The position numbers and the translations under genes are program-made. Positions 26,169-61,248 of a stretch of DNA of 61,835 nt are shown here, in pieces (position 1 is the first letter of the stretch; the number at the start of each line of letters is the position of its first letter). This stretch comes from Myxococcota bacterium (GTDB lineage Bacteria > Myxococcota_A > UBA796 > GCA-2862545): assembly GCA_039208735.1 (NCBI GenBank), contig JBCCQY010000046.1, positions 1-61,835 of the forward strand, in the 5' to 3' direction. Under the pieces are notes generated by a model. That model was not told the origin of the DNA. It was given only the letters and a program-made list of their open reading frames with translations, and made no database searches.

Positions 26169-26239
26169 CGTTACTGCATTTACGACATCCGCGGGCGCTC
26201 GGCCAGCAGGATCGCCAGGAAGCCGGATAAGGAGTGCGC

Positions 26240-29088: not shown

Positions 29089-29115
29089 GCCCTTCGGCGA
29101 GGGTTAATCAGCTGC

Positions 29116-31463: not shown

Positions 31464-31512
31464 GCCCCTCCTCCGGGTGGCGAACGCTACCACACGCCTA
31501 CCCCGTCCCGAG

Positions 31513-32505: not shown

Positions 32506-32563
32506 CGGCGCGTCTCCTTCACGGTGGCCACGTAATCCGACGGGACGCCGCGTCCGGTCGCAT

Positions 32564-36195: not shown

Positions 36196-36230
36196 GCTGT
36201 TCTCCTCCGCGGGAAGGGTACCTCAGGCAC

Positions 36231-40434: not shown

Positions 40435-40447
40435 GAGGGAAGGAACG

Positions 40448-41869
40448 ATGATGTGGGCGTTTGTGTCTCTGGCGATGGCCCAGCAGCTACCCGATCGGTT
40501 CAACGGTCAGGTCATGCGGCCCAGCATCGATGCTCAGAAGACCTTGTGGGCCGAGCAGAGTGCGACCGCACCGGACGGCTACGCGACCTTTCGGGTGTAC
40601 ACGCAGTACGCGAATGGTGTGGTTCGCGATCGTTCGACGGCGGTGACGCAGCGCTTGGTTGACGATCTGCTGGAGTTCGACCTGCTGGGGGCTTGGCACT
40701 GGCGTGGGCTGCGCTTGGGCGCCCACATTCCGATTTACGGTCTGACGACGGGCGATGATGCGACGACGCAGCCGGGATTGGGCGACATCGCGTTTGATGT
40801 CAAGGCCACCGTGCTCGAGGGAGAGACCGACCCTTTTGGGGCTGCGATCATCGCTCGCATGCTGCTGCCCACTACGTCCGTGCAGATTCCTTTGGGGAGT
40901 ACCGGGCTGGGCAGTGAGATCTTTGTGGCGGCGGATCGCGACATTGATCAGTTCACGTTGGTCACCAACCTGGGGGTTCGGATTGGACCCCAAGCCCGGG
41001 TTGGCGACATTGGCTGGGACGATCAGTTCTTTGGTCGGGTCGCGGTGGCGCTGTCGGGCGATCGATTTGGCGGGTCGTTGGAGGGTGGTTTGCAAACCAA
41101 CTTCGCAAGCGCCGAAAACCCGGCGGGGACGGCGGCCGAGCTGTTGCTTGCGGGTCATGCCAAGCTCACCGACCTGTGGACGCTGCGTGGTGGTGCGTCG
41201 ACAGGCTTGTCGACGAGCCCAGGTTCTCCACTGTTCCGAGTGCTTGCGGGAATCTCCTATGAGCCCGATCCGTCGCCAGACAATGATCGCGACGGTCTAG
41301 TGGACCGTGAAGACGGCTGCCCCCGCGATGCTGAGGATCCCGACGGCTACGAGGATTACGACGGCTGCCCCGACGCGTCGTACTCGGTGCAGGTGATGGT
41401 CACCGACCCAGATGGCGATCCTCTGGAAGCTTTGGTGGTGCTCGACGGGGTCGAGAGCCACCACCTCGATCTTGGCGACCGGGTGGCCACGGTCCATCCC
41501 GGGCTCTACCGCCTGATTGCCAAGGTGGACGGCTACGATTCGTATGTGGGCGAGGTCGATATTCCCGCCGTGCAGGGCCATCAGGTCAAGGTCGAGGTTT
41601 CGCCGCGCCAGGGTCAGGTTCGCGTCTGGGCCGTCGATGAAGTGGGCAATCGGGTGGCGGCTCGCTTCACGATCGATGGGTTGGATTCACAGCCTACGGG
41701 TGGCGAGCCTGTCACGGTGCGCACCGGAGAGCACGCGATTGTCGTGACCGCCGATGGATACCGGGCCGCGCCTGTCTCGGTGAACGTGGCACACGGTCAG
41801 ACGAGGGCGTTGTCCGTCGTGCTCGACCGGTTGCCCGCGGCCCCGTCCAGCCGCGACGACGACGAGTAG
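40448..41869 (+). CDS. Outer-membrane beta-barrel protein with TSP3 Ca-binding repeats and C-terminal PEGA/Ig-like domains
   Basis: Signal peptide MMWAFVSLAMA; GLGDIAFDVK barrel motif; DNDRDGLVDREDGCP...DGYEDYDGCPD; purine-rich RBS. Confidence 0.75.
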   Translation: MMWAFVSLAMAQQLPDRFNGQVMRPSIDAQKTLWAEQSATAPDGYATFRVYTQYANGVVRDRSTAVTQRLVDDLLEFDLLGAWHWRGLRLGAHIPIYGLTTGDDATTQPGLGDIAFDVKATVLEGETDPFGAAIIARMLLPTTSVQIPLGSTGLGSEIFVAADRDIDQFTLVTNLGVRIGPQARVGDIGWDDQFFGRVAVALSGDRFGGSLEGGLQTNFASAENPAGTAAELLLAGHAKLTDLWTLRGGASTGLSTSPGSPLFRVLAGISYEPDPSPDNDRDGLVDREDGCPRDAEDPDGYEDYDGCPDASYSVQVMVTDPDGDPLEALVVLDGVESHHLDLGDRVATVHPGLYRLIAKVDGYDSYVGEVDIPAVQGHQVKVEVSPRQGQVRVWAVDEVGNRVAARFTIDGLDSQPTGGEPVTVRTGEHAIVVTADGYRAAPVSVNVAHGQTRALSVVLDRLPAAPSSRDDDE

Positions 41870-41872
41870 CGA

Positions 41873-42553
41873 TCAGCTCGCGTGCTGGCGCATGCGGGCC
41901 ACGAATACCCCGCCGCAGTACTCCGCCATGGCGTCGAAGGCGTCCTGGAGTTCGGCGTCGCTCATCTTCTTGATTTGCTTCGCGTTGTTGACCACGAGCA
42001 GGCCTTGGGCGACCGCGCTCGGGTCTCCGGCGGCGATGTTGCACCGCAACCGGCTCTTGTAGACCTTTCTGCCCGCTTCCGTGAACAGCTTGGCTCGGAC
42101 CTTGTAGGTGAACGATCCCTGCACCCCGAGGCTCGGCACCTGCAGGCCCCACTCCACAAGTTCGAGCTGCAACAGGTTGCCGGAGTCATTGCGGCCCCGC
42201 ACGGCAAACGGTGGGCCGCCTCCCAACGTGCTTGCCAGACTGTTGAGCATGGCATCGTTCGAGCGTCCGATGTCGACCCGACCGATCTTCTCTCGAAGCT
42301 GGGCCTCCTTCACGCCCTGAACGACGTTGAATACGCCCGACGCTACGCTACCGACGACGTTGGCGGCTACTTCGGCGTCGCTATCCGGGGTAGGGTCGCC
42401 CACATAGTAAGAGCGGGGAAGCACCGCGCTGGCTCCCGACGTGGTCAACAGCTGAAGCTGCACATCATCGATCGAGCCAACGTTTCTCTTGAATCGGCCG
42501 TGGCAGCCCACCATCACAAGCAAAGACAAGGTCAGACCAAGCGCTCGGAGCAT
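41873..42553 (-). CDS. Hypothetical lipoprotein
   Basis: Lipobox MVGC after a hydrophobic stretch; GGAGG RBS upstream. Confidence 0.75.
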   Translation of the reverse strand: MLRALGLTLSLLVMVGCHGRFKRNVGSIDDVQLQLLTTSGASAVLPRSYYVGDPTPDSDAEVAANVVGSVASGVFNVVQGVKEAQLREKIGRVDIGRSNDAMLNSLASTLGGGPPFAVRGRNDSGNLLQLELVEWGLQVPSLGVQGSFTYKVRAKLFTEAGRKVYKSRLRCNIAAGDPSAVAQGLLVVNNAKQIKKMSDAELQDAFDAMAEYCGGVFVARMRQHAS

Positions 42554-44466: not shown

Positions 44467-46245
44467 TCATTTGGACTCCTGCACGCAAGAGCGGTGGGGG
44501 GAGATGGCCTGGGCGACGCGGTTTGGAACGGGCCACGGTAAACCGAGCCATTGGGCCTCGATCAGCGCCGCGGCAATGGGCGCCGTCACGCTGCCCTTGG
44601 AGCCATGGGCCACGGACACGGCGCCGGTTGGGGTCTGGCCTACGATGGGCGCATGGTCAGCGGCCTTGAAGCGCACGCCGGACCACCGTTCGTTCGGGGG
44701 TCCGACGTCGACGCCAAAGCGCTCGCGGGCTTTCGCCACCAGCTCCGGCCCCTCCTCGGTTGGGACCTCTTCACCGCGATGGCGCGACGCACCGACGACC
44801 GTGCCGTCCGGCGTGTCGAAGAGGTAGACCCCACCCGCCACCGCGATCCGGGCCCGCAGGGGGCGCCCCGCTGCGCGTACCACGGTTCCGGCAACCGGCG
44901 CGGCCGTAAGACCGGGTGGGGGGCGCCCTGTGCAGTGGACGACCCAGCCCTTAGGGATCTCGGTGGTCGACCATCGCACGTCGATCCCTTCGAGCAGGTG
45001 AGCGACTGCACGAGGGCCGTCAAGCCAGCCCGCTGCGGACTGGGCGTAGCCTTCCCGTTCGGTCGTTCCCGAAGGATGGGGGAACGCCCCAAGCCAAGGA
45101 GACCCTCGCCAGCGGTCAGGAATCTTGACGTGGTGCTCGGCGAGTTTTCCCGTGCGTCGTGCCATCGCGAAGGTCTCGAAGGGCACGAGGGCACTGCCGT
45201 AGACCCAACGCAATGCCCAGCCGGCCTGGGTGAGCTGCGACACGGGGTCGGGACCGGCGGCCAGATGAGGCCGACACAACAGCCACGGATTCGAGGCTCC
45301 CGCCCCTCGGTCGACGACGGTCACCGTACAACCTTGATCGTGGAGGAACCGGGCCACACACGCCCCCGCAAGCCCTGCCCCGATCACCGTGATGGCTCCG
45401 CCGCGGGACACGGCGGCGGAGCGAGCGCCCGTGTAGTGCCCGACGAGGCGATGGCGTTTGCCGGCGAATCCTGGCTTGCGCTCCACCGTAAACCCTGCGT
45501 CTTGCAACCCTCGCCGTACGGCGCTTGCCGCGGTGTAGGTGGTCACCGGAGCCCCCGCGACACAGTGCTTGCCGATGGCGGCGAGCACTTCGGGGGTCCA
45601 CATCGCGGGGTTCCGAGCGGGGGCGAAGCCATCGAGAAACACCGCATCGATCGAGGCCACTAGCCCATCGAGGGCGGTTTGTACGTCGTCTTGGAGCAGG
45701 AGGAGGTGGACGCGACCGGGCACCACCCGAATCAAGAAACTCCCGCGGTGGGGCGGGGGCATGGCTTCGTGCCACGAGCGGTCAAAGCCAGATGGCAACT
45801 CGGTAATGGGGGAACGCTGGAGGGCCTGCGTTCGAGCTTCAGGCGTGAGCGGATGCGCTTCGATCGACACGAAGGTCAGGCACCCGCGTTGGGTATGGGC
45901 GAGCCAGGCCGCGGCCGCCAGCCGGAAGTTGAGGCCCGTACCAAAGCCGGTCTCGAGAATGGCAAAGGGTTGACCCTGGGCATTGGCGAACCGCCGTGGA
46001 AGGTCAATGCCGTCGATGAAAAGCGCCTCGGACTCGGCCCGCGCCCCCGCACGGGAGGCATAGCGGTCGTCGTAGTCGAGGCTCTGAAGCCCGCCGTCGT
46101 CGGTCGGGACGACGCGGGCCGGGGAAAGAACAGGGCGAAACCGGTCAGAGATCGACGCGAACCGAGGCGAACACGGTGCGGCCCCGCTGGGGCAACTGGT
46201 CGATGATGAGATCGTCGCCGCCGGGGTGGACCACGGGGAAGTCAA
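44467..46245 (-). CDS. mnmC: Bifunctional tRNA mnm5s2U biosynthesis protein MnmC (methyltransferase + FAD oxidoreductase)
   Basis: ETGFGTGLNF, FVSIEAHP, FLDGFAPARNPAMW, TYTAAS.VRRGL, KPGFAGKR, GAGLAG, HGSKG; start uncertain. Confidence 0.88.
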   Translation of the reverse strand: MTSPWSTPAATISSSTSCPSGAAPCSPRFASISDRFRPVLSPARVVPTDDGGLQSLDYDDRYASRAGARAESEALFIDGIDLPRRFANAQGQPFAILETGFGTGLNFRLAAAAWLAHTQRGCLTFVSIEAHPLTPEARTQALQRSPITELPSGFDRSWHEAMPPPHRGSFLIRVVPGRVHLLLLQDDVQTALDGLVASIDAVFLDGFAPARNPAMWTPEVLAAIGKHCVAGAPVTTYTAASAVRRGLQDAGFTVERKPGFAGKRHRLVGHYTGARSAAVSRGGAITVIGAGLAGACVARFLHDQGCTVTVVDRGAGASNPWLLCRPHLAAGPDPVSQLTQAGWALRWVYGSALVPFETFAMARRTGKLAEHHVKIPDRWRGSPWLGAFPHPSGTTEREGYAQSAAGWLDGPRAVAHLLEGIDVRWSTTEIPKGWVVHCTGRPPPGLTAAPVAGTVVRAAGRPLRARIAVAGGVYLFDTPDGTVVGASRHRGEEVPTEEGPELVAKARERFGVDVGPPNERWSGVRFKAADHAPIVGQTPTGAVSVAHGSKGSVTAPIAAALIEAQWLGLPWPVPNRVAQAISPHRSCVQESK

Positions 46246-49060
46246 GTAGGTTGCGGACTCCGAGTCCGTACCGCACGTTCGGCTTGGCCACTCGGCCGAT
46301 GAGCGTCACGTCCCAGATGACCGCGCCCTGCGTGGTGTCGCCCGCGTTGGTGAGGCGATTCGTTTCGGCACGGACCTTGTGCGACATCTGCAGCTGGCTC
46401 GACAGAGGGATCGACCCGATGATGGAGGCCATCCATTCCGGCGAGTTGGTGATGGGCTGGGGCCGCTCGGAGGGAGGCGTGTCGTCCCCTTCGAAGAGCG
46501 TGTTCAGGCGCGTCCGCTGGTACGACAGCTGGGCCGCGACCATCCAACCCGACCGCCACCAACGCCGGATTTCAGCTTCGGCCCCGAGCGTCACGATGGG
46601 CTGCTGTGACGAGGTGTAGCGGAAGACCCCTGCATCGGGGTCGGCCTTGGTGCCGAGCTTGTCCTTCAGCTCGCCAAGCGGCACATCTTCGGTTTCCACC
46701 AGGTCGTCGATGCGGTTGTAGTACGCATTGACGGTGGAGGTGAGCACCTGGTCGAAGCGGTGGGTCCATTCGAACTCGGCCGTCTGAATCGTCTCTGGCA
46801 CGAGGTCGATGGCTGGCAAGCTCGAGATACCCGAGTCGTTGAAGAAGAACTCGAAGGGCGAAGGCGCGCGGAAGGCGGTGCCCCCAATCACCTTGATGAC
46901 CTCATTGCCTGGGCTTAGGATGAGCGAAGCACGGGGGTTGATCGTCGAGAAGTCCCGGTCGACGATGCGATAGGAGTCCACGCGACCGCCAACGTTCAAC
47001 CGAAAGATTTTTCCGGGGTGGAAGTCGGCCAGCGCGTATCCCGAGTAAATCTGGGTGGGGATCGGGATGTCCACGGCTTGCGCGAAAGGCTCCTCGTCGA
47101 GCGCTTCCCGTTCGAAGCTGCGCAGCTCAGCCAGGAAGAACTGGCGAGTTTCGGCGCCGATGGTGACGTCGAAGATGTCGCCGAACCGCTGGTTGACCTG
47201 CGCGAGCGCCCCGAGGCCGTTCTCGTAGTGGTCATCCTGGAAGATGTAGCGCGGTTCGTAGGGGAAGTTCGTGCGGTTGCCGAAGTGATCGTAGAACACG
47301 CGCAGGTTCAGGCGAGTGTTGTTGATCTCGCCCACGTAGCGGCCTTCGAGGAAGGCCCGACGGTCCAGTGCGATGGTGCGAGGATCGCCGAGACGGGTGC
47401 CGAAAAAGCCGTTGGGCACGAAGCGCTCGCGCTCCGAAAGGTAGCCCTGAACCACGAAGTCCCCGCTCCATGCCTTGCCCATGAGGTGACGGGCGTAGGT
47501 GTCGTCCTGGTCCGAGAAACCACCCGAGAACCGGTCCTCTGCGTACTCGTCGAAGAAGAACATGCGGCGGTGGTTGTACAGCCCGTTGGCCGAAATGTAG
47601 AAACCGCGGTCATCCTTGCTGGCTCCTACGGAAACCCTCGCACGAACACCGTTATTGGCAGCCGAAAGTACCGCATGATTGGTGATCTCGTCGCCGCGGC
47701 CCTTCGTGACCACGTTGATGACGCCAAACACCGCATTCGAACCATATAGCGCCGAACCCGGGCCCCGCACGAACTCGATTCGCGTCACATCTTCAAGGTC
47801 ACCCAAAAAGTCGTTCCCCGCCTGGGAAGAACCGATGAAGTTGTCGTTCGTCCGGTGCCCATCGAGGGTCACGAGAACCCGGTTACCGTAATCCCCGAGG
47901 CGGTTGAACCCGCGAATTCCGAGCGACTCGTAGGCGAGGTCGTCGGTGGAGTAGACGCCACGTAGGCCCTGCAAGGCTTCGATGACGGTCTGATAGCCAA
48001 ACGCCTGGAGTTCTTCTTTGGGAATCAGGTTGACGCTGGCTGGTGCCTCGGCCACGTCCTGGGCGTAGCGGCTGGCCGCCGTAACCGTGAAGATCGGGTC
48101 CAGCGAAACGCGGCCCAGATCCGTCGATTCGCCTTCCTGGATGTCGACAACGGTTTGGTAGGGCGCATAGCCGCGAGCCGAAAGCCGAACCTCGTGCTTT
48201 CCGATCGTGACGTCGGGGATGACGAGGGGGGTGTAGCCGGCGGGTTGTCCGTCGATCTCGACCAAGGCGGCCCGAAGGTCAGCGTCGACCACCAGGGCTC
48301 CGGTGATGGCCGCCAGATCGGCGGTGACCGGGACTTCCTGCCCTTCCACCACGTCAACGACTTTGGGCAGCGTGCGGTAGCCGGGCTTGTCGAAGAAGAG
48401 GAACTGACGTCCTTCGGGAAGGTCGAGCATGCAGGGCACTTGGCACTGAGGCTCGGCATCTTCTCGACCAATGCGAATGTTGGCCCCGTCGACCCCCGCG
48501 ACGTCCACCTGGCCGACGATCGGCACCAAATCGACCTCGATGGCTTCGGCCTTCATGCCGGCCTGGAGCATCGTGGGGTCGGTCGAGACCTCCTCGTAGC
48601 CTTCGCGCTCGAAAATGAAGGTGTACCGACCCGGGCGAACCGGAATCTCGAGGGGGGTCGTCCCTACCGCGCCGAGGTTCTTCCGCTGCAGGTAGACCGT
48701 TGCCCCCGGCGGATCGGAGTCAACCTTCACGATCGCGACATTGCGTCGGAGCTGAACGAGGGTCTTCTCGATGCGTTTGTTGGTTTCGTCGTCGGGCAAC
48801 GCGTCGTCGTACGCATCCTGATACCAGCGATACGCTTCGGGATACCGACGCAATTGCTCGTAGGTGAGCCCGATGTTGAACATGACGTTGCGGTTTTCGG
48901 ACAGCCGGTTGCTGACCATGAAGTGAAACAGGGCCTTCTCGAAGTCCCCTGCCGCATACGACTTGCGTGCGATCTGGAAGTTGACCTCGGCCTCGTCCGC
49001 GGTGTTTCCCGCCCATGCGGGCTGGAACATCACGAACAATGCCCAAAAGATGGCAGTCAT
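46145..49060 (-). CDS. TonB-dependent receptor with N-terminal TPR and tandem PEGA domains
   Basis: Signal peptide; TPR (FNIGLTYEQL..Y.EA); PEGA (SDPPGATV...GTTPL); plug VTAASR..Q...EAPASV, IRGF, IEFVRGPGSALYGSNA.FGVIN; GVRNLLD near the C-terminus. Confidence 0.92.
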   Translation of the reverse strand: MTAIFWALFVMFQPAWAGNTADEAEVNFQIARKSYAAGDFEKALFHFMVSNRLSENRNVMFNIGLTYEQLRRYPEAYRWYQDAYDDALPDDETNKRIEKTLVQLRRNVAIVKVDSDPPGATVYLQRKNLGAVGTTPLEIPVRPGRYTFIFEREGYEEVSTDPTMLQAGMKAEAIEVDLVPIVGQVDVAGVDGANIRIGREDAEPQCQVPCMLDLPEGRQFLFFDKPGYRTLPKVVDVVEGQEVPVTADLAAITGALVVDADLRAALVEIDGQPAGYTPLVIPDVTIGKHEVRLSARGYAPYQTVVDIQEGESTDLGRVSLDPIFTVTAASRYAQDVAEAPASVNLIPKEELQAFGYQTVIEALQGLRGVYSTDDLAYESLGIRGFNRLGDYGNRVLVTLDGHRTNDNFIGSSQAGNDFLGDLEDVTRIEFVRGPGSALYGSNAVFGVINVVTKGRGDEITNHAVLSAANNGVRARVSVGASKDDRGFYISANGLYNHRRMFFFDEYAEDRFSGGFSDQDDTYARHLMGKAWSGDFVVQGYLSERERFVPNGFFGTRLGDPRTIALDRRAFLEGRYVGEINNTRLNLRVFYDHFGNRTNFPYEPRYIFQDDHYENGLGALAQVNQRFGDIFDVTIGAETRQFFLAELRSFEREALDEEPFAQAVDIPIPTQIYSGYALADFHPGKIFRLNVGGRVDSYRIVDRDFSTINPRASLILSPGNEVIKVIGGTAFRAPSPFEFFFNDSGISSLPAIDLVPETIQTAEFEWTHRFDQVLTSTVNAYYNRIDDLVETEDVPLGELKDKLGTKADPDAGVFRYTSSQQPIVTLGAEAEIRRWWRSGWMVAAQLSYQRTRLNTLFEGDDTPPSERPQPITNSPEWMASIIGSIPLSSQLQMSHKVRAETNRLTNAGDTTQGAVIWDVTLIGRVAKPNVRYGLGVRNLLDFPVVHPGGDDLIIDQLPQRGRTVFASVRVDL

Positions 49061-49178
49061 CGGGCCTCCGACCGCGCCTTGGGGGCGGCGCGCGGAAAAA
49101 ATGGAGGTTGGCCCAGGTGAAATCGTCAGTGGGGCGATCGGTCCTGGTGCGCGAATGTCTCACGCCGGACGATCGCTG

Positions 49179-50216
49179 TCAACCGATGTCGATCACCAAA
49201 ACGGTTACGTCGTCGCGAGGCCGCAGCGGGCGGTTGTGATCGCTGACCAACTGCCGGAGTCGGTCGCGAAGGGTCGCTCCGCTAGGATCGTCTGTGGATT
49301 GCTCACAGAGTGTCCGGATGGCGCGTTCGCCCAATTGTTGACCCTGCGCGTTCTCGGCCTCAGGAACCCCGTCGGTAAACAACACCAACCGATCTCCGGG
49401 GGTCACTGCGATGCTGAGTTTGGCGTACGACACCGCCGGCTGGGACCCCAACGGGGGTTCGCGATCGCTTTGGACGAGCTTCCACTCGCCCTCGGAAAGC
49501 AGCAACGGGGCTCGGTGTCCCGCGTTGGCGAGTTGCAGCTCGCCCTTCCCCTTCGCCGTCGTGATGGCGATGCTCGTCGACATGAAGTCGTGCTTGGCGG
49601 CTTCCACAACCACGCGATTGAGCATGCGTAGAAGCTGGTTGGGCTGCAACTGGGCCCTCATCCCCATTCGCGCAAGATCACATGCGCCTCGAATCACGGC
49701 CGTGATCAACGCGGCGGGGGCGCCATGGCCCGTCACGTCGCCCATGACGATCAGTCCGCGGTCGTCGTCGAGGGAGTGAGCACTCCACCAGTCGCCACCG
49801 CACGCTGCGGCGGGTTGGTACCACGAATGAACGACGGCCCCTGGCACGGGGGTCTCGGCGGGGGGCACCAGCTGACGTTGCACAGTTCCCGCACGCTGGA
49901 GTTCGGCGTGGCTCGTCCAGATGGGAACGGTGAGTCGGGTGAGGCTTTCGATCGACAGGGCAAGGTTTCCGACTTGCGTCCAGAGGTCACCAAGCGAGCG
50001 GGGGACCTGGGTGGCCGTATCGGCCAGGGTAGGACGGTCGGGCCAACCGAAGGCGGGTCCGGCGAGGGCCACGGCATTGACAACGGCCTGTTCGTCTTGC
50101 CGTTGGGCTGCCAAATCGATCGCGCCGATCGTCCGGGTCAGCTCTTCGATGGCGGCCCGCAGCGCTTCGGTCTCCGCCCGAAAACGCTCTTCCTCGTTCC
50201 CGTCCTCCTCACTCAC
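49179..50216 (-). CDS. SpoIIE/RsbU-type PP2C serine phosphatase
   Basis: GGDWW, GDVTGHG, NAGH, FTDG, DDVT; helical N-terminus with no recognisable sensor. Confidence 0.93.
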   Translation of the reverse strand: MSEEDGNEEERFRAETEALRAAIEELTRTIGAIDLAAQRQDEQAVVNAVALAGPAFGWPDRPTLADTATQVPRSLGDLWTQVGNLALSIESLTRLTVPIWTSHAELQRAGTVQRQLVPPAETPVPGAVVHSWYQPAAACGGDWWSAHSLDDDRGLIVMGDVTGHGAPAALITAVIRGACDLARMGMRAQLQPNQLLRMLNRVVVEAAKHDFMSTSIAITTAKGKGELQLANAGHRAPLLLSEGEWKLVQSDREPPLGSQPAVSYAKLSIAVTPGDRLVLFTDGVPEAENAQGQQLGERAIRTLCEQSTDDPSGATLRDRLRQLVSDHNRPLRPRDDVTVLVIDIG

Positions 50217-51160
50217 CGCGGACTCCCCTCGACGTAGTAAAGCGAGCGAGGGAGCCCCCGCTGCTCACGCTGGACCACCGTACGGTCGAGCGTCCATGAC
50301 ACCAGCGTCAAATGGTGAGGTACCACCTCGACGCGAAACACGGCAGCGGTGTTGAAGAGGTTGAAGAGTCCGAGGCCAGCGCCGCCCTGCGAAATGTCAA
50401 GGACGGAACTTGAATGACTGCTGCGGCCCGAGCGGGCCCGCAAGATGCCTCCGAAGACCCGGCCTCGAGGAAGTCGGCCGAACGGATCCGCAGCATCGAG
50501 CGAAAGGTGTGAGCTATCGACGGTCAGCCGCAGGGTGGGCACCTCGTCGGGTTGCAGTTCGATGTTGGCTCGTCGGTCGGCGGCGTACTTGGGTCGTCCG
50601 AGGGAGTCGACGGGTGCGTCGTACATCGCGTTCATAAGCAGTTCATGCGCCGCATCGGCCGCCGCGGCAGCGAGCCGCGTGTTGATGCCAAATCGCATGG
50701 CCACGACTTCGACCGCCCGAACGGCTTGGTCCCGCTCGGCGGAGGTCCGAGGGTGCCAGGTCACGGTGCTTGCGCCCCACAGCAGCAGGTCTGCAGAGGT
50801 CGGTGGGGACTCACTTGGCGCCATGGCTCGGCGAGTGATGTAGGACAGCTCCCAGGGACGCACCCCGACCTTCCGCCACGCCAAAAACCCCATCACCTGG
50901 GGAAATCGTATTGCGGCGGTAAGCAAGGGCTCCTCAATCCTCTGGCTTAGGACGAGCACCTTGGCTTCGGGGTAGCGGGGCAGCCACTCCAGGGCTTCCG
51001 CCAGGCGCGTTTGGTCGGTCACGAAGAGCCGAAGCGGACCCCGCAGTTGGTCGAGGACGTGCGGAACGGATGTACCCGTCGCCAGGGGAGCGCCGGAGGC
51101 TGCGCTGGTCATGCAACGTCCGACCCCCGAGATGGCCCCTTCATCGATGGCCAAGGCCAT
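50213..51160 (-). CDS. RsbW/SpoIIAB-like HATPase (putative serine kinase) with a degenerate receiver-like N-terminus
   Basis: N-box AHELLMNAMYDA, DPFG, G2 GGAGLGL; no H-box; start 51160 or 51112. Confidence 0.7.
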   Translation of the reverse strand: MALAIDEGAISGVGRCMTSAASGAPLATGTSVPHVLDQLRGPLRLFVTDQTRLAEALEWLPRYPEAKVLVLSQRIEEPLLTAAIRFPQVMGFLAWRKVGVRPWELSYITRRAMAPSESPPTSADLLLWGASTVTWHPRTSAERDQAVRAVEVVAMRFGINTRLAAAAADAAHELLMNAMYDAPVDSLGRPKYAADRRANIELQPDEVPTLRLTVDSSHLSLDAADPFGRLPRGRVFGGILRARSGRSSHSSSVLDISQGGAGLGLFNLFNTAAVFRVEVVPHHLTLVSWTLDRTVVQREQRGLPRSLYYVEGSPR

Positions 51161-51173
51161 TTGGGGGGGGCCC

Positions 51174-53339
51174 TCAACCACGTCGCGGTCCGGGGAAGAA
51201 GGCAGCAAGGCAGCCGCGTCGTTCGGCAGGCCCCGGGTCGCTCGCGTGATGCGAATGATCCGGCATCGACAGTGACATCAGCTCGAAGCCCGACAGGTCG
51301 GACTCGATGACGAGGTCCCCACCGCACCGCGTGCAGCCGGCCCGAAAAATGACGGGAGACCGACCCCGGAGGCTGCCAAGGTCGACGATCTGCTGCCGGG
51401 ACAATCCACAGGACTTGCAGGTTGCGGCCACCTGCAGCGAGACCACCCGCAGGACCCCTCGAAGACTGGGCCGCTGACTCAACGCGTCGCATACCGCGAT
51501 GGGGGTGCCCACCAGCTCGAGCGCCACGATCTCGGGTGAGATGCGATCAAAGGCGTCAACGAAGGCGGCGATACCGGACTTGGTCGTCGTGGCGCATTCG
51601 GACAGATCGAGTTTCACGACCCCTTCGAGTCCACGAACCACGCGACCCCACCGTGCGTCGCTGCGCAAGGGACGGCGAATGTAGAGGGTCGAGACGTGGC
51701 CATCGACCGTCAATTCCACATCGAGCTTGCGCGCCCGGGCCTCGACCTGGCTCAGCACCGTCCGGATGTGTTCGGGCGGTACGGGCAAGAAGTCTTCGGC
51801 GAAGTGGAAGTACAGGCGCGGGTCGTCGTCAAACTCCGCGGCCCGACTGGGGTCGGAGGGGGACGGCACCACCGGCAGTTCGTGATGCAGCACAGCACGC
51901 TCGGCCGTCTCGCCCGAGAGCACCTCGGTAAACGCAGAACCCGTGATGGGGTCGATGAAAGGGGCTTGGAACGACAAGATTTTGCCGCCACCCAGCAGCC
52001 CGCGAATCATCGTGACCTGGTTTACGAACGGCACCGAGCAACGAACGAAGTACAGGTTTTGAACGTTGGCCCTGGCCTGGCCAAGCAGGCCGATCAGCGA
52101 TCGGATGCCGTAGCTCGTGATGCGGGACACATCATGGGTATCGATCACGACCTCGCCCCGAATGGCATCGATGAGCGGAGCGGGGTCGAAACGTTCGTCG
52201 AGCACGCCGTGAAGCGTCACGACCGCCACCCCAGATTCGCGGCGAAGGGTCGCGTGTTCGGTATCGATCGGGGCCAGCACGACCGGCGGGGTGGGCACGG
52301 GGACTTCCGTGAGCTCCCGGACCGGAGTTTCGACCTCGATGGCTTGAGGCATGCTGGGGTCGGACGCGGCAAGCTCGGCTGCATCGAGTCGCGGACGGGG
52401 GCCAAGCACGGCTTCGACGAGGTTTGAGAACCCGACCGTCGACACAAAGAGGCTGTGGTCCTGAGCGAACTTCTCGATGTCTTCCAGCATTGCCCGAGCC
52501 GTGGGGTAGCGATCCTGGGGGCGCTTTTGCAACGCGCGCAGGACGATGCGCTCCAGTTCGGGCGACAGTCGCGGGTTGATGCGGCGCGGGTCAGGAACCG
52601 GGTCGTCGATGATGCTGCGCATCGTGTCGTAGGCGTTCTTCCCACGGTGCGGCACGGTCCCCGTGAGCAACTGGTAGAACACCACGCCCAGGGCATAGAT
52701 GTCGGTGCGACGGTCGATCGAACCGCCCCCACACTGCTCGGGCGCCATGTAGAGGACTTTGCCCTTGAGCACGCCCGAATCGGTCGGCGCATTCATCTGA
52801 GTGGACTTGGCAATGCCGAAGTCCAACAACTTCACGCCGCCGTCGTAGGTGAGATAGACGTTTTGCGGCGACACATCGCGGTGGACGATGCCTTGGAGGT
52901 TGCGTCCGTCGGGTCTCGCGCGGTCGTGGGCATAGTGAAGGCCCGAAAGCACACCGCGCACCACATACAAGACTTGGTCGAGGGTGAGCACTTCACCCTT
53001 GGCGTGGGCTTGGCGCCGGAACTGTTGAAGATCGGCTCCTTCGAGGAACTCCATCACCATCACGAGTTCGGACCCGCTCTGGATGACGTCGTAGGTCTGG
53101 ACGATGTTGGGGTGCTGCAACGTGCTCGCAAGACGGGCCTCGTCGAGGAACATCGCCATGAACTCTTGGTCGCCCGCGTGAGCCGGGAGCATGCGCTTGA
53201 GGGCAACCCGCTTGGTGACGTCGCCAACCCCGATGGACTCGCCCAGGTACAGTTCCGCCATGCCTCCCGTCGCGATGCGACGGAGGAAGCGGTATTGCGA
53301 ACGTCCCGACATGCTGGTCTCCGACCCGGTCGACGTCAT
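51174..53339 (-). CDS. Hanks-type Ser/Thr kinase fused to two STAS-like domains and a C-terminal Zn ribbon
   Basis: GGMAELY, VALK, HRDVSPQN, DFGIAK, YMAPE; VTLHGVLDE...DVSRITSYGI; CKSC...CTRC. Confidence 0.9.
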   Translation of the reverse strand: MTSTGSETSMSGRSQYRFLRRIATGGMAELYLGESIGVGDVTKRVALKRMLPAHAGDQEFMAMFLDEARLASTLQHPNIVQTYDVIQSGSELVMVMEFLEGADLQQFRRQAHAKGEVLTLDQVLYVVRGVLSGLHYAHDRARPDGRNLQGIVHRDVSPQNVYLTYDGGVKLLDFGIAKSTQMNAPTDSGVLKGKVLYMAPEQCGGGSIDRRTDIYALGVVFYQLLTGTVPHRGKNAYDTMRSIIDDPVPDPRRINPRLSPELERIVLRALQKRPQDRYPTARAMLEDIEKFAQDHSLFVSTVGFSNLVEAVLGPRPRLDAAELAASDPSMPQAIEVETPVRELTEVPVPTPPVVLAPIDTEHATLRRESGVAVVTLHGVLDERFDPAPLIDAIRGEVVIDTHDVSRITSYGIRSLIGLLGQARANVQNLYFVRCSVPFVNQVTMIRGLLGGGKILSFQAPFIDPITGSAFTEVLSGETAERAVLHHELPVVPSPSDPSRAAEFDDDPRLYFHFAEDFLPVPPEHIRTVLSQVEARARKLDVELTVDGHVSTLYIRRPLRSDARWGRVVRGLEGVVKLDLSECATTTKSGIAAFVDAFDRISPEIVALELVGTPIAVCDALSQRPSLRGVLRVVSLQVAATCKSCGLSRQQIVDLGSLRGRSPVIFRAGCTRCGGDLVIESDLSGFELMSLSMPDHSHHASDPGPAERRGCLAAFFPGPRRG

Positions 53340-55552
53340 TGACGGCCCTCGTAGGGAAGCAGGCCGTCTGACGGTGTCGACGGATTCGTGTTGGGAGCGG
53401 GAGTGGGCGGAAGCAGCTCAGCCTCTCGATCGAAGCCCACCGACACGAAGCGCCCCTTGTGGAACAGCTGCATCTCGAGGCGTCCTCCGTCGACCATGCG
53501 GTCCCAGCGCTGCTGAGCTACACGCTTGAACTCTCCGGGCGTGCTGACGGTCTCTTCGTCTACGCTGACGAACCCGTCCCGCACCTTGGCGGATTTGAAC
53601 CACGATGCGGCCTTGGTCACGACCAGTGGCGTGCGCTCGTGCAGTTCTAGGCCGTAGTCCGTGGGGAAGCGGCGACCCACGGCCAAGCCGCGGAAGCTCA
53701 CGCTATCGCCGTAGTGTGAAATCAGGCGGTTCCACACGTCCAGGGGGAGCCGATGCTGGGTGGCCACCGTGTAGGTGGGTCCAACACGCTTGAGAGCGGA
53801 GTTGGAGCGAACCGGGTCGGCCCAGGTGCCGACGTCCTCGAGGAACTGCCGGACCACGGCTTCGGGCTCCGAGAGTCGAGGTTCGGCAAGTAGGGCGCGG
53901 CCTGCACGCCGGCTTGCGACCTCGGTGCGGAGTTGACCGATGAGTCGGGCCACCGCATCCACGCGCGCACGCTCGCTCGTGGGCTCGACATCGGTGCCGT
54001 CTGCCAGCCCCACCACGAGCACCGACTCCTCGTCGACCACAAAGCGCTCATCGACCCACGGGGGAGGCACCGGCGCTCCACCATTCCACCCGTCGACGGG
54101 GCCTTCAATGACGGTTGGATCAGGCTCGCTGCTCGGGCTCTTTGTGACGAAGAGGTAGGCCACGATGATGAGGGCGATCGTGGCCACCACGAACATCACC
54201 GTCGAGAACAGAATGGCGAAGTTGCGGAAGTGCTGGTTGGGTCCTGCGGGCCGAATCACCGGCGGAGGAACTTGCCCGTTGGCCTGAGGAGCGCGGGGCA
54301 ACGTGTCGAGAGGACGCGACCGGCGAAGATCGGCCGGTGGAGCCAAGCGATCCGCTGCGGCGAAGAGGACATCGGTGTCGGAGAGGTCGACGTTGCCCAT
54401 GGCCCAGTTGGCCTCGACCGGCGGCAGCTGCTGCTTGCGGAGCAGGTCGCGGCGCCGGTCGACGTCGACGAGAACAGGCCGCTCGATGCCGTTAGCGAGG
54501 CAACGCGCCCGCACAAACATGCTCGACAGGTACACCCGATCGATGGGGTTCGTCAGCAGGTTCCGAGCCAGGCCCACGCTTGCACCATCGATCCACAGTT
54601 CGAGGACCTCGGGTCCCAGGTCCCGGAGGGCATCGACGAGGTGTGCGACGCCTTCGTCATCGGAGCGCGGCACGACCGAGAGGTCCAGGGTGACACGACC
54701 TTCCAACCCCGCGAAGGCCCGACGCAGCCGAAGCCGAGCATCGAGTGGTGCATTGAAGCGCACCCGGGTCTCTTGTTCCGAGATGAACTTCTCGATGGGG
54801 TCGATGCGCGCGGAACTTGTGAGGTGATCCACCACCTGCTGGAGTTCGAACGGCACAGCGTCGAGGAGATGTTCATCGATCGCGAAATAGCTCCACGGAT
54901 CGTCGTCCATCTCGGCGGCCTGATGGCAGTTCGGGCACTCCACTTGAGCGGGACTGCGGTTCAGGATGAGTTCGCGGTCCGCCACGGCTTCGTACAGAGC
55001 GCCGAACTCCTCTCCACAGTGGTTGCACGTGTAGGGCACCATCAAGGAGTGAATGCGGCCCGGCCCGCAGAAATTACGCATCATCGTGATTTGGTTGACG
55101 ATGGCTTCGCTGCAGCGCAGGAACGTGCAGCTCGTCACCCGAGCGGACTCGAGCATTTGTAGCCAGCCCTTCACCCCAAACGAGCTGACCCGATCCACCT
55201 CGGCCAAGTCGAAGACTACGTCGCCTGAAAGGGTTTGACCAAGCTCCGCCCCCCGGAACGACTCATTGATGCGTCCCCGCAACGTCACCACCGTCATTTG
55301 GCCAATGGGTCGGGTATCGACGACCACGTCGGTGGGGGGAAGGTAGCTGCGGCGCATGATCTTGCGTTGCTCGGGAAGCACCGCTGGACGTCGGGCGTGG
55401 CGTTCAGCCTCGACTTTGGCGCGCTCGATCGCATCGGCTTCGCTCTTCGCGAAATTCGAGAAGTCGAAGCCAAGCGCGGTCTGGGGGACCTCACGATCGT
55501 CGAAGGACGGGATGCTCGGCGAATCGTCGGATTGGGGGTTCTTGCCCGACAT
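53336..55552 (-). CDS. Membrane-anchored tandem STAS-like / Zn-ribbon protein with a periplasmic C-terminal region
   Basis: VTLRGRINE...FDLAEVDRVSSFGV; CNHC...CPNC; second STAS-like LDLSVV...DDEGV; one TM segment (FAILFSTVMFVVATIALIIVAYLFV). Confidence 0.78.
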   Translation of the reverse strand: MSGKNPQSDDSPSIPSFDDREVPQTALGFDFSNFAKSEADAIERAKVEAERHARRPAVLPEQRKIMRRSYLPPTDVVVDTRPIGQMTVVTLRGRINESFRGAELGQTLSGDVVFDLAEVDRVSSFGVKGWLQMLESARVTSCTFLRCSEAIVNQITMMRNFCGPGRIHSLMVPYTCNHCGEEFGALYEAVADRELILNRSPAQVECPNCHQAAEMDDDPWSYFAIDEHLLDAVPFELQQVVDHLTSSARIDPIEKFISEQETRVRFNAPLDARLRLRRAFAGLEGRVTLDLSVVPRSDDEGVAHLVDALRDLGPEVLELWIDGASVGLARNLLTNPIDRVYLSSMFVRARCLANGIERPVLVDVDRRRDLLRKQQLPPVEANWAMGNVDLSDTDVLFAAADRLAPPADLRRSRPLDTLPRAPQANGQVPPPVIRPAGPNQHFRNFAILFSTVMFVVATIALIIVAYLFVTKSPSSEPDPTVIEGPVDGWNGGAPVPPPWVDERFVVDEESVLVVGLADGTDVEPTSERARVDAVARLIGQLRTEVASRRAGRALLAEPRLSEPEAVVRQFLEDVGTWADPVRSNSALKRVGPTYTVATQHRLPLDVWNRLISHYGDSVSFRGLAVGRRFPTDYGLELHERTPLVVTKAASWFKSAKVRDGFVSVDEETVSTPGEFKRVAQQRWDRMVDGGRLEMQLFHKGRFVSVGFDREAELLPPTPAPNTNPSTPSDGLLPYEGRQ

Positions 55553-55632
55553 GGGGGCTCCTTCGGACCGCGAATCCGGGTGGGTGGGGGCGGGACGCCG
55601 GACTTTATACCGTGAGCCTGTGACGTGCCGGA

Positions 55633-56250
55633 TCAGCGCGCCTGAATCAAGCCCGGGTCCGCGGTTCCTTCGGGTTCAGGAACGGGCGTGGGAGGTGCAC
55701 GAAAGGGCGGGGGCTTGGGGCTCGAGCGGGTTCGCATGCTCACCCGAACGCCAGGGGCGGTTTTCTCGAGGGTGGCGTCGGTGGGCGCGTATCCGCCCAT
55801 TTCGAGCCGCAGGAGTCGGCGGGCTGGTGCGTGGTCGGGCTGGTCGATCGTGCATGGGGTGTGCGAACACAGCTCGGTGTTGCCCTCCCACACCGAGGCA
55901 CCCTCGGGAATCGACACGACCGTGACCTGGCGTACGGCACCTTCCTGGGTGGTCACAGGCACGGGCAGGTCAGGCACGGGTGCTGCGACAAGAGGATCCT
56001 CGGGCGCGTTTTGGATCGTCGTGGGGCCCGTAAACCAAACCACGCCTGCGACGACCAGAGGAGTCGCAACCACAAAGGCGAGACCGATCAGGACGAGGGG
56101 CAACGCCCGGGAGCGTTGGGGTTGGATGGCCGGAGGAGGAATCAGCGGTGTGGTGGCGGATGTGCGCAGCTGGGACAGCTCGGTACCATCGACGAAGCAG
56201 TATTCGACGTGGTTGTCGTACTCCGCACCGCACTGGGGACATCGCTTCAT
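55633..56250 (-). CDS. Zn-ribbon + TM + PEGA domain protein
   Basis: MKRCPQCG...YCFVDGTEL; TM segment; VVSIPEGASV...HTPC. Confidence 0.8.
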   Translation of the reverse strand: MKRCPQCGAEYDNHVEYCFVDGTELSQLRTSATTPLIPPPAIQPQRSRALPLVLIGLAFVVATPLVVAGVVWFTGPTTIQNAPEDPLVAAPVPDLPVPVTTQEGAVRQVTVVSIPEGASVWEGNTELCSHTPCTIDQPDHAPARRLLRLEMGGYAPTDATLEKTAPGVRVSMRTRSSPKPPPFRAPPTPVPEPEGTADPGLIQAR

Positions 56251-57763: not shown

Positions 57764-58819
57764 ATGGACGCCCACGTATTCGATCGCGCCGCGTTTCACC
57801 GCGATACCGTCGCCGGTCATGGCTTGCCGGAGAGCCAGGCGTGGGTCCACAGCGGGATCTTGTTCGGATGGGCGGTGGAGCGAGGCCTCGTGGCTTCGTG
57901 GCTTCGTGATCGAACGCCCGATGCGTTTCGAGCATTTGCCGATCGCACGCTGACGGGGCCAGGCCTGCTGGCCGCGTGGGACGGCAACCTTCTGGACGAC
58001 ATGTTCAACGACGAAGGGCTGGCGTTCCTTGCCGCGTACTGGACGTCATCCGGCGACCCCGAATTCGGTAGCTACATCGAAGACTATCGGTCGGTGCTCG
58101 TCGATGGGCTAGCTTCCGACTACCACGTCGAGGATACGTGGCAGAACTACCGACGAATGGTCGACGTTCTCGATGCCCGCCACGCTCGTTTTCGGGCGAC
58201 GTTCGACCCGACGGCGCCAAGGGTGGATCTTCGCCAGGGGCCGGCTGCGGTGAATTGGCTTGGTCCTGGCTGGCTTCCTACCATTTTGGTGCCTCATGCC
58301 GTGGCGCTGCCCCAGGCGACGATCGGTCTGGTGGCTGCCCAACCCGAGACCGTAGCCGCTCTCGACTACGCAACGACGCACGCCCCTGGCTGGGTCGTGC
58401 TGCGCATGCCCGACCTGTCGGTGGGGGTGGCTGCCACGGTCGAACGTTGGGAAGGGGACCGTGCATTGTTGAATCTGTTCACGCGTGTACACAGTGCGGG
58501 TTCACCCCATGAAACGGCGCCCATCAGCCCATCCTGGTGGGTGGAGCGCCGCCGTGAACCCGCATGGAATGCGAACTGTGTGGGGTGGGTGAACGAGCTT
58601 CGTACGCGGGTGGGGCAGTTGGTGACCCGACGTCGAGAGGCGGGGAAATCTCCGGGAGCCTTGGCTTTGGCCCTTGCTCATTCCGAGTTGGCGCTCGTGG
58701 ATGCGGTGGCCGCGGATCTGCTGGAGGACGGGGAGGCCCGACGCGAAGTATTGTGCGCGTCACGGGCGGACGATCGCGTGCGCATCGTCGTCGAAGCGCT
58801 GCGACGAGCCACGGCTTGA
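57764..58819 (+). CDS. Two-domain hypothetical protein: unknown N-terminal domain + degenerate Lon N-terminal (substrate-binding)-like domain
   Basis: N-terminal HSGILFGW...YIEDY...YHVEDTWQNY; C-terminal LPTILV..VALP, VGVAATV, LVDAVAA..RREVL..DRV pattern. Confidence 0.65.
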   Translation: MDAHVFDRAAFHRDTVAGHGLPESQAWVHSGILFGWAVERGLVASWLRDRTPDAFRAFADRTLTGPGLLAAWDGNLLDDMFNDEGLAFLAAYWTSSGDPEFGSYIEDYRSVLVDGLASDYHVEDTWQNYRRMVDVLDARHARFRATFDPTAPRVDLRQGPAAVNWLGPGWLPTILVPHAVALPQATIGLVAAQPETVAALDYATTHAPGWVVLRMPDLSVGVAATVERWEGDRALLNLFTRVHSAGSPHETAPISPSWWVERRREPAWNANCVGWVNELRTRVGQLVTRRREAGKSPGALALALAHSELALVDAVAADLLEDGEARREVLCASRADDRVRIVVEALRRATA

Positions 58820-59037
58820 CCGGGGCGGGTTATGCGAGGTCAGGCCCGACGGGGTCTTCGGTCAGTTACGGATCTCGCAATGGCCGGTTGCTCGAGCCCT
58901 CGGGCAGCGGCTGCCGCAGGAGTCGATCGTGACGAAGCGCCCAACCCCCAAGGACCCAGGGTCCCACGAGTCGTCGAACGACGGCGACGTTCCCCTAGCC
59001 CCGGCGCATTCCGTCGGGGCCCGGACCTTGCGGTGAG

Positions 59038-60156
59038 GTGCCGATGCTCTTCCCTGGAACGTCCACCGGCAGCTGGTTGATCGACGATCTCGTCGGTCTA
59101 GGCATGCCCCGGACCTACAAGGCGCGGCACCTCGACATGGGCTCGGAATGCCGTCTCAAGGTGCTTCCCAAGACCGCGACGACGTTGGCCGCACAAGAGC
59201 GTGAGACCAACGCGCTCGACCACCTTCGGCACGAGGCGTTGGCCGAAGTCGTCGACTACGGCTCCGACAACGATCAAGACCTGGTCTGGACCGCGTTTGC
59301 ATGGTTCGAAGCGGATGAACTTGAGGATGGTCTGCTCGTTGGCCCGATGCCATGGGCCGACGCCTGCCATCTCTTTCGGATCCTGGCGGATGCGTTAGCG
59401 TACGTGCACGGTGAAGGCATCGTTCACCGCGACATTCGCCCGAAGAACATCTTGGTGGCGCCGGAAGGCCCCCGAGCGTTCGGAGGGGCTTGGCTCACCG
59501 GGTTCGACTACGCCATGACCCAGCAGCAGTTGGAGCGGCTGTCGCAGGCGCCGGTGGGGAATCTCGCCTACCTCGCTCCCGAGGTGTTGCGCGATCCGAC
59601 GCACCATGGAGCGAAGGCCGATGTTTACTCCTTCGGCTGCGTGATGTACGAGGTGCTTTCCGCCGAGCCCCCCTTCCCGGCGGCGGCGTTCGGTGGCGAG
59701 CGCAATGATCAAGCCCGGGCCATGTTCGACTGGAAAACCCGGGCAGACGCCCTCGACCCGGGTGAGGGCTGCCCGGATTGGCTGCGTGACCTCGTTCGTC
59801 GCTGCACCCATCCCGATCCGTCAGAACGCATCCAGGACGTTGAGACGGTGGTGCGTGAACTCGATGCCCACAAAGCAGAATGGGGCCTCGCGGACGTGCA
59901 GCCTCCAGCCGAACTCGGCGCCCCCCCGCCGCTTCGCATGCCCACTGAGCCCACGCTGCGGCCGGTGTTGGGTGCAGCGCGGCTCCCGCCCCTCAAACCC
60001 ACGTCGGCCAAGACGGCCCCGTCCTACGATGGCCGAAGTGAACCGCAGCCCGGAACTTCGCTGGCTCAAACCGTGTTCTGGGCGCTGGTTGGCGTCGTGA
60101 TCGGGCTTGTCGTAGCCGGATTCGTGATCGCGACGCTCGAATCGTCAGGATTCTAA
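59038..60156 (+). CDS. Membrane-anchored Ser/Thr kinase-like protein (atypical)
   Basis: [20 protein letters not shown]-terminal TM; the DFG position reads GFD. Confidence 0.85.
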
Positions 60157-61023: not shown

Positions 61024-61248
61024 TCACCCCTCCAAGTCGCGTTGCGCTTGGTGCAAGAGCGTCCGCATCCGGCCGACCGCGTCGAGCGTCGTCTTCACAA
61101 CCGGCGCCATCGGTTCAATGTGATCTTTGAACACCGCCTCGGAGACGCTGTCGTTCCATTCGTCGGACACTTCTTCCCACGCGCCGAGGAGGTCTTGCAG
61201 GGCCCGGCCTATGCGGGCGCCGCCCGTGTCCAGGTCGCACGGCTTCAT
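61024..61248 (-). CDS. Small helical-hairpin protein, WXG100/ESAT-6-like (W-N-D turn)
   Basis: 74 aa; two amphipathic helices around WEEVSDEWND; ATGA overlap with the upstream gene. Confidence 0.6.
   Translation of the reverse strand: MKPCDLDTGGARIGRALQDLLGAWEEVSDEWNDSVSEAVFKDHIEPMAPVVKTTLDAVGRMRTLLHQAQRDLEG

Follow-up and report, generated by a model that had tools for sequence, protein, structure and literature searches.

The RsbU-RsbV-RsbW-sigmaB and SpoIIE-SpoIIAA-SpoIIAB-sigmaF systems are partner switches of Bacillus (PMC8256260). The output need not be a sigma factor: in SiaABCD of Pseudomonas aeruginosa, phosphorylation of a STAS-like protein controls an enzyme instead (PMC8457831), and BgrV, HsbA and SypE-SypA (for the last, PMC8256260) are further sigma-independent switches. 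LvrC of Leptospira, a proposed anti-sigma factor, joins a receiver to a Bergerat-fold domain, and its receiver is canonical and is phosphorylated by a histidine kinase (PMC13269768). Here we describe a six-gene locus, g1 to g6, of a Myxococcota bacterium (contig JBCCQY010000046.1 of assembly GCA_039208735.1); the window that was analyzed is the whole 61.8 kb contig (61,835 nucleotides), within a 9.4 Mb assembly. The locus is a real, uncharacterized variant of partner switching, and a trans-envelope input is plausible but unproven. Judging from sequence comparisons and structure models, the switch likely sets the activity of the Hanks Ser/Thr kinase g3, and the probable input is the TonB-dependent receptor g6, acting through a kinase-less adaptor, g1; we give this reading roughly an even chance.

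A predicted partner switch with fused targets

Like RsbUVW and SpoIIE-AA-AB, the locus has a predicted Bergerat serine kinase with N, G1 and G2 boxes and no H-box (g4), a SpoIIE-type phosphatase with metal-binding motifs (g5), and STAS domains with a conserved loop serine (g2 and g3). Unlike in RsbUVW, the STAS domains stand in tandem, are tagged with zinc ribbons and are fused to a membrane protein and to a Hanks kinase, so that there is no free-standing antagonist; no sigma factor is linked, and the kinase g4 carries a receiver-like domain. In its working the locus appears closer to sigma-independent switches of the SiaABCD type than to RsbUVW. The likeness to SiaABCD is one of fold only (6-11% identity, with no SiaB or SiaC (DUF1987) match in Pfam or NCBIfam), and a Ser/Thr kinase in fused form, rather than a diguanylate cyclase, is predicted as the output, no GGDEF domain being found by Pfam in the six genes; the STAS domains, moreover, are fused and not free. 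All 4 genomes compared from the same genus, and one further genus, show the block g2-g3-g4-g5 in synteny, and because this synteny is kept in relatives, the gene arrangement is non-random.

What kind of protein is g4? Neither Pfam nor NCBIfam gave a match, a sequence search of the PDB returned nothing usable, and HATPase_c_2 is matched by only 3 of 121 g4 homologs; the closest named homologs are labelled Myxococcota or Deltaproteobacteria, and the names displayed, among the 120 listed, are hypothetical or uncharacterized. The AlphaFold (AF2) model from 121 sequences (predicted local distance difference test score, pLDDT, 94.9) is more telling. In VIA comparison, the source of the structural Z scores for both g4 and g2, residues 129-296 match SpoIIAB (Z 11.8, root-mean-square deviation (rmsd) 2.6, 137 residues aligned), RsbW (Z 10.0), SiaB (Z 9.4) and also UsfX, while residues 1-117 match receiver domains with Z up to 9.7. 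With the whole chain, the top Foldseek match is LvrC (PDB 9qih, E 3e-7), and SpoIIAB, RsbW and SiaB come next. The ATP site is conserved, with E173, N177, D225 and G264 each present in 120 of 121 sequences and G228 in all 121; taken by motif, the N-box (E173/N177), G1 box (D225/G228) and G2 glycines (G260/262/264) are kept in 115-121 of 121 rows. As in LvrC, the receiver domain precedes the Bergerat domain. Unlike that of LvrC, the g4 receiver is not canonical: the receiver aspartate, D49, is kept in 66 of 121 sequences, and no lysine is among the top residues at 93-97, these positions being judged by strand order in the model, with no residue-level superposition. Since the aspartate is so often missing and the beta-5 lysine is not conserved, we read the N-terminal domain as a pseudo-receiver; nor is there a histidine kinase among the six genes. 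On the strength of the model, g4 is a predicted serine kinase for the first STAS domains (STAS1) of g2 and g3.

These two proteins share a module, (STAS-zinc ribbon)x2, at 32% identity (g2 86-368 against g3 371-658), although Pfam STAS_2 is weak in both. In the AF2 model of g2 (residues 66-720, pLDDT 89.8), STAS1 has a Z of 10.8 to 4hyl and of 10.2 to RsbV, STAS2 reaches Z 7.6, and the STAS fold also matches SiaC (Z 7.0); by homology to g2, the g3 domains presumably have the STAS fold as well. The STAS and GHKL folds proposed in the preliminary description, which was made from the window's letters, are thus borne out by structure comparison and Foldseek of the g2 and g4 models. It also had the STAS domains and ribbons of g2 and g3, and did not see that the module is common to both or that each protein has lost the cysteines of one ribbon. 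Such loss affects domain 1 of g3 in 10 of 38 proteins and domain 2 of g2 in 8 of 30, and is restricted to the window's clade and one close locus with FIST sensor domains.

The STAS1 serine aligns with the serine of the D-S-x-G motif (D-S-A-G) of TM1442. It is found in 100 of 101 first STAS domains (FIST-fused 33/33, kinase-fused 37/38, membrane-only 30/30) and in 10 of 101 second domains (5/33, 3/38 and 2/30, respectively), counts that exclude 7 partial or unclassified domains. Stand-alone STAS domains, which occur in minimal relatives only, have it in 5 of 5; all four STAS domains of the locus are fused.

The g3 kinase has no ectodomain, and the transmembrane tail of several orthologs is reduced here to a short stub; its nearest relatives are kinase-STAS-STAS-periplasmic proteins. 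g2 is predicted from its model to be an inner-membrane protein whose Lpp20-like and PDZ parts are periplasmic, with a Pro-rich tail after the PDZ domain. The phosphatase g5 is a strong Pfam SpoIIE match (E 2.2e-36, 126 bits against a cut-off of 25) with intact catalytic motifs (GGDW, GDVTGHG, FTDG, RDDVT); its N-terminal region is short, and orthologs, including sce8427 of Sorangium, have a longer N-terminal domain. The kinase, SpoIIE, TonB receptor, PEGA, TPR, STAS and zinc-ribbon assignments made earlier all stand; the receiver-like domain of g4 and the PDZ domain of g2 had been missed.

The receptor and its adaptor

From its sequence, g6 is a TonB receptor with a plug and a predicted barrel region. 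Its matches in the PDB are CirA and BtuB, the latter over residues 323-605, and FTVTAAS at 324 can be read, against the general consensus, as a TonB-box-like sequence. TonB receptors that signal are familiar from FecA-FecR-FecI, in which a receptor with an STN extension works with the single-pass inner-membrane protein FecR and an extracytoplasmic function (ECF) sigma factor. Here too, the N-terminus of a TonB receptor extends into the periplasm, and its predicted partner spans the inner membrane once. The present locus differs in that the extension of g6-type receptors is made of TPR and three PEGA domains and the partner is a kinase or a kinase-less PEGA protein; Pfam found neither STN nor FecR among the six genes, and the contig has no sigma gene.

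Relatives of the N-terminal half of g6 occur in 45 of 301 phylum genomes. At the 30 best loci, the gene directly 5' of the receptor encodes a Hanks kinase in 24, a PP2C phosphatase in 2 (the window and genome G030), a PEGA protein in 1, where the contig is cut, and an unassigned product in 3. The partners share a C-terminal tail: of the 29 kinases or PEGA proteins encoded upstream of receptors as their partners (phylum and family loci together), 28 end in [ILMV]xxxR-COOH, a motif defined after the sequences had been viewed. As background, in genome G000 the same ending is seen in 4 of 165 kinases and in 267 of 7586 reading frames classed as long. Among g1 and its orthologs, 8 of 10 end in this motif, and the other two have the motif followed by 5 residues. 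The PEGA domain of g1 is 36% identical (E 7e-8) to that of a receptor-adjacent kinase, and in genome G329 a kinase-less g1 lies immediately upstream of a receptor with no switch genes between. When 53 receptor arms are placed in a tree, that of the window pairs with a kinase-adjacent one (support 100/97), and both switch-linked receptor clades are nested among kinase-adjacent receptors. The kinase of g3 has a median similarity of 254 bits (n=26) to the kinase-STAS proteins of the type A loci defined below, versus 128.5 bits (n=24) to tail-bearing kinases. From the tail, the PEGA likeness, the G329 pair, the receptor tree and the g3 kinase scores we conclude that g1 and g6 form a receptor pair with g2-g5 lying in between, and that g1 is an ectodomain without a kinase and g3 a kinase without an ectodomain. 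On these sequence comparisons, g1 corresponds to the membrane kinases found in front of g6-type receptors, but lacks their kinase domain. The single system proposed earlier is better seen as two separately widespread modules joined at one locus, a point the preliminary description had missed.

Several candidate relationships were rejected. The g3 kinase is not the displaced kinase of the receptor pair, being nearer to the type A kinase-STAS proteins by the scores just given. The zinc ribbon of g1 does not come from receptor-adjacent kinases, none of which has the pattern in G000 or in the scanned loci. The receptors at Kofleriaceae and Haliangiales loci are not g6 orthologs (46-66 bits versus 650-1050) and belong to an unrelated subfamily.

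Related pairs were seen elsewhere. G000 has a second kinase and TPR-TonB receptor pair (C236:661-4689) and a weak-scoring kinase-PEGA and TPR-PEGA pair (C136:11736-14710). Zinc-ribbon transmembrane genes without a kinase, with an LKDPF-like tail and followed by a TPR gene, occur at C145:21292-23657 of G000 and at L227:7651-10940; the former is divergent from a g4 paralog, and the latter from a STAS-transmembrane and PP2C pair. By sequence these genes are a second adaptor type beside switch genes.

Distribution and variants of the switch

How widespread is the switch? Members of the g4 family occur in 9 of 61 relatives and, across the phylum, in 48 of 301 genomes; a search of viral contigs for relatives found none. 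Among 80 loci, the best 80 of 114 g4-family matches in named genomes, a STAS-zinc-ribbon gene is present in 68, PP2C in 41, a kinase-STAS fusion in 38, FIST in 37 and a sigma gene in 7; of those loci at least 18 kb long, 40 of 42 have the STAS-zinc-ribbon gene. The switch is a Myxococcota-wide, unannotated module.

These counts bear on a more conventional possibility. Might g4 act, in the manner proposed for LvrC, as an anti-sigma factor and bind a sigma factor whose gene lies at another place, with the STAS1 domains as antagonists and the g3 kinase as a modulator? The top whole-protein fold match is indeed LvrC, for which that role has been proposed (PMC13269768), the genome holds 67 matches to sigma-70 region 2, and in the Haliangium locus L084 a sigma gene (9125-9769) lies immediately upstream of g4. 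Yet none of the 67 matches is on the window contig, in keeping with the earlier remark that the window has no sigma factor, and 7 of 80 loci is near the roughly 10% estimated from the sigma gene density of G000. The minimal loci pair STAS with GGDEF or kinase genes, and nearly half of the 80 loci have the STAS-kinase fusion. We consider an anti-sigma role for g4 improbable, and retain the reading in which the switch acts on g3.

Five architectures can be distinguished. Type A loci (Sorangium, Chondromyces and others) have g4, PP2C, a FIST-STAS-STAS-transmembrane-periplasmic protein and a kinase-STAS-STAS-transmembrane-periplasmic protein; in them 1 to 5 FIST sensor domains are fused to the tandem STAS membrane protein (L051:9776-19399; L026:11675-19885). 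Type B loci (Kofleriaceae, Haliangiales) have g4, a STAS-STAS-transmembrane-periplasmic protein and TPR-PEGA and outer-membrane genes, without PP2C. Type C is the window's architecture. Types D and E have a single STAS with GGDEF and kinase-AAA-GAF-PP2C, or with HAMP-PP2C; GGDEF occurs in the minimal relatives L028, L029, L124 and L134. At L130:9406-12546 the fusion order is reversed to STAS-STAS-kinase. The type B operon L121:258-19901 (also L104, L122 and L123) runs from g4 through a STAS-STAS-transmembrane-periplasmic protein ending in DDPTQ, a TPR-PEGA protein, a FadL-type porin, an unknown protein, OmpA/TSP3 and an unrelated TonB receptor to a second g4 and a kinase-PEGA gene; operons of this type have no phosphatase. 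In a quick FastTree of g4 with midpoint root, the window clade (support 99) lies inside a group with all FIST loci (98), and this nesting suggests, with no proof, that FIST was lost.

The type A locus of Sorangium cellulosum So ce56 (L051) resembles the window's in having a g4 homolog, a phosphatase, STAS-STAS-transmembrane-periplasmic proteins and a kinase-STAS fusion. It differs in its fused FIST sensors, in a kinase that has not lost the ectodomain, and in the absence of both g1 and the receptor. The phosphatase of L051 is sce8427, its N-terminus agreeing with the supplement of PMC2887360. STAS domains fused to eukaryote-like kinases (ELKs) have been noted in Sorangium, and in the available part of that source sce8427 is listed as a phosphatase only, with no mechanism (PMC2887360). 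The same source gives mxan4562 of Myxococcus xanthus as a HAMP phosphatase; from this description it resembles the minimal type E.

Is the receptor coupled to the switch?

Several observations argue that it is. At 9 loci, including those from which the receptor has moved, g1 is the gene directly in front of g2. In G000, 9 of 14 TPR-type genes lie directly behind a kinase or g1-like gene, and 2 of 3 zinc-ribbon transmembrane proteins adjoin g4-family genes. A TonB receptor is present at 0 of 37 FIST loci versus 9 of 30 FIST-less membrane-STAS loci, many loci being incomplete, and a TPR/PEGA gene is present at 26 of these 30. A long linker with a conserved tail closes most of the FIST-less membrane-STAS proteins and is missing from most of the FIST-fused ones.

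A good deal weighs on the other side. Of the 9 receptor-bearing FIST-less loci, 4 have a g6-type receptor and 5 one of an unrelated subfamily. Of the 7 loci whose DNA continues past the phosphatase and that can be assessed, only 4 (G000, G002, G004 and G030) have the receptor directly behind it, and in the window 118 nucleotides separate g5 from g6. G328 has a receptor paralog 1.5 kb upstream of g1; G001, the closest relative, has its g6 ortholog (72%) on a separate contig; and in G003 (95% complete, 830 contigs) no g6 ortholog was found. Within the family, neither a kinase nor g1 stands upstream of most receptor copies, and G329 has two switch loci without g1. Paralogs of g4 without STAS neighbors also exist, such as the solo gene at C207:10157-11143 of G000, which is 59% identical and has no STAS or phosphatase gene beside it. 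The tail motif is a post hoc one, and because the genomes are kin (18 of the 80 g4-family loci are from Sorangium), the locus counts overstate independence. The neighborhood conservation that the preliminary description named as a check accordingly holds for g2-g5 and much less for the receptor, and the link it drew from receptor to switch survives as a tie to g1 through the conserved C-terminal tail, not obviously to g2, and is absent from the FIST loci.

The g6 ortholog of G001 (L116, on G001:C90) is preceded by a block of GGDEF, rhomboid-like and SDR-like genes. By one profile match and by eye, this block resembles window positions 24035-33361, 13-22 kb downstream of g6, and the likeness suggests a local move.

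One might think, then, that the locus is merely a pair of independent modules sharing a promoter region, in which g2-g5 work alone and g1 tethers or serves g6 for transport, with no signal passing between them. The unlinked receptor of G001 and the one not found in G003, the G329 pair of g1 and receptor away from the switch, the phylum-wide occurrence of the switch without a g6-type receptor, and the rise of switch linkage in two separate receptor clades all fit such independence. What it leaves aside is that g1 stays immediately 5' of g2 in those 9 loci despite the moved receptor, that kinase-less zinc-ribbon transmembrane genes recur at switch genes with other TPR partners (C145, L227), and that the losses in g1 and g3 complement each other. 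We hold it to be rather unlikely. We take receptor to g1 to switch-gated kinase as the best reading.

A related issue is the PDZ domain of g2. It matches the PDZ domains of DegP, DegQ and AlgW (E 3e-12), and its binding-loop glycine G622 is kept in 52 of 61 rows. In a DegS-like manner, it might bind C-termini left exposed when proteins of the outer membrane or periplasm, g6 and g1 included, fail to assemble, in which case g2 would read envelope stress and the receptor would be a monitored client rather than a signal receptor. The Lpp20-PDZ ectodomain occurs in receptor-less FIST-type loci, and type B operons are rich in outer-membrane genes, both of which favor a stress sensor. The receptor-specific tail of g1 would be left unexplained, however, and the STAS-transmembrane protein of L227 seems, by eye, to stop after the Lpp20-like part. 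A stress sensor of this kind seems very unlikely to us, and we keep g6 as the candidate input.

Gene features and surroundings

Table 1. Features of the six-gene locus; nucleotide positions are those of the window.
Feature	Nucleotides	Strand	Residues	Description and evidence
g1	55633-56250	minus		205 amino acids; zinc ribbon, transmembrane helix, PEGA, tail
g1 zinc ribbon			1-25	Pfam Zn_Ribbon_1, E 0.026 (weak)
g1 transmembrane helix			53-71	single; hydropathy 2.65
g1 PEGA			about 104-170	periplasmic; Pfam, E 8e-4 (weak)
g1 C-terminal tail	55636-55653	minus		GLIQAR; preceded by Pro-rich linker
g2	53336-55552	minus		738 amino acids; STAS-ribbon x2, transmembrane helix, Lpp20-like and PDZ periplasmic part
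g2 STAS1	55181-55183 (S124)	minus		S124 predicted phospho-acceptor; zinc ribbon intact
g2 STAS2				D299 in place of Ser; ribbon degenerate, cysteines lost
g2 transmembrane helix			447-469
g2 Lpp20-like domain			about 495-617	5ok8, Z 6.1, rmsd 3.2, 99 aligned; moderate
g2 PDZ, HtrA-type			about 618-711	Z 8.9; profile match to DegP-like PDZ, E 3e-12
g3	51174-53339	minus		721 amino acids; Hanks kinase and (STAS-zinc ribbon)x2
g3 Hanks Ser/Thr kinase			15-295	Pfam Pkinase, E 1.5e-39; VALKR, HRD, DFG, APE intact
g3 STAS1	52113-52115 (S409)	minus		S409; ribbon without cysteines
g3 STAS2				K587 in place of Ser; ribbon intact
g4	50213-51160	minus		315 amino acids; receiver fold and SpoIIAB/RsbW-type Bergerat domain
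g5	49179-50216	minus		345 amino acids; SpoIIE/PP2C phosphatase
g6	46145-49060	minus		971 amino acids; TonB-dependent receptor with TPR and PEGA arm
g6 N-terminus and TPR			18-100 (TPR)	signal-peptide-like N-terminus; Pfam TPR_2
g6 PEGA x3			104-322	Pfam
g6 plug			326-460	Pfam Plug, E 5e-20

The six minus-strand open reading frames at 46145-56250, in the order g1 to g6, confirm in sequence the earlier account of co-oriented genes with an ATGA overlap between g2 and g3 (53336-53339) and a GTGA overlap between g4 and g5 (50213-50216). The gaps are 80 nucleotides for g1-g2, 13 for g3-g4 and 118 for g5-g6; the likely start of g4 is the ATG at 51160, 13 nucleotides beyond the end of g3. A scan for promoters and terminators found no promoter-like site and 6 terminator-like ones, where chance alone would give 6.8, with none in the g5-g6 gap. 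The locus is flanked by a MatE gene upstream and a MnmC-like gene downstream, and two more downstream genes are presumably rplU and obg.

Elsewhere in the window, the region upstream of the locus (57764-60156) encodes a DUF7832 protein and a second Hanks kinase; the DUF7832 gene also adjoins the locus in G001, G002 and G004, and the second kinase in G001 and G002. Two further genes give no indication of belonging to the switch: one for an ordinary SulP-STAS transporter (36168-37961), at a distance of 8 kb from g6, the other for a hybrid histidine kinase (558-3155), 43 kb away. A 2729-residue protein with DUF4215 and RCC1 repeats is encoded at 9656-17845 and a member of the ERG4/ERG24 sterol-reductase family (E 2.5e-43) at 33365-34447. 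The reading frames at 60158-60958, 61245-61811 and 40130-42553 have no Pfam match at the thresholds applied.

A proposed mechanism and its meaning

How might the locus work? Very probably, g4 would phosphorylate S124 of g2 and S409 of g3, and g5 would reverse this. The state of STAS1 in g3 would then, on balance, gate the fused kinase, with g2 as a membrane scaffold or a sink for g4, by analogy with SiaC, which gates SiaD with no sigma factor involved. In the periplasm, the TPR-PEGA arm of g6 probably binds the [ILMV]xxxR tail of g1. More tentatively, g1, an ectodomain without a kinase, may relay receptor occupancy to g2 and g3. As for origin, a FIST-sensor switch would likely have lost FIST and landed within a kinase-receptor pair whose kinase domain was lost. 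The complete trans-envelope route, in which the TPR-PEGA arm captures the IxxxR tail of g1 and so acts on a membrane-tethered switch and a STAS-gated kinase, an outer-membrane input thereby replacing the cytoplasmic one of FIST, seems doubtful to us when all its parts are taken together.

The literature search found no description of such a system, in agreement with the earlier statement that no characterized system has this architecture; subscription journals and preprint supplements were not covered. Because the same switch is present, unannotated, at the sce8427 locus of the cultured strain Sorangium So ce56, its core can be tested now.

To our knowledge, myxobacteria have hundreds of Ser/Thr kinases and almost no known inputs to them. 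What the locus provides is a definite candidate input, a TonB receptor with a tail of six residues that could be mutated, together with a likely point of control at S409, in the STAS domain of the kinase itself, and a predicted pair of enzymes to write and erase the mark. If the proposed reading is true, Hanks kinases would join sigma factors and cyclases as outputs of partner switching, and TonB-dependent cell-surface signaling would extend beyond FecR and ECF sigma factors. It would then be an undescribed way of carrying surface signals to a kinase instead of a sigma factor.

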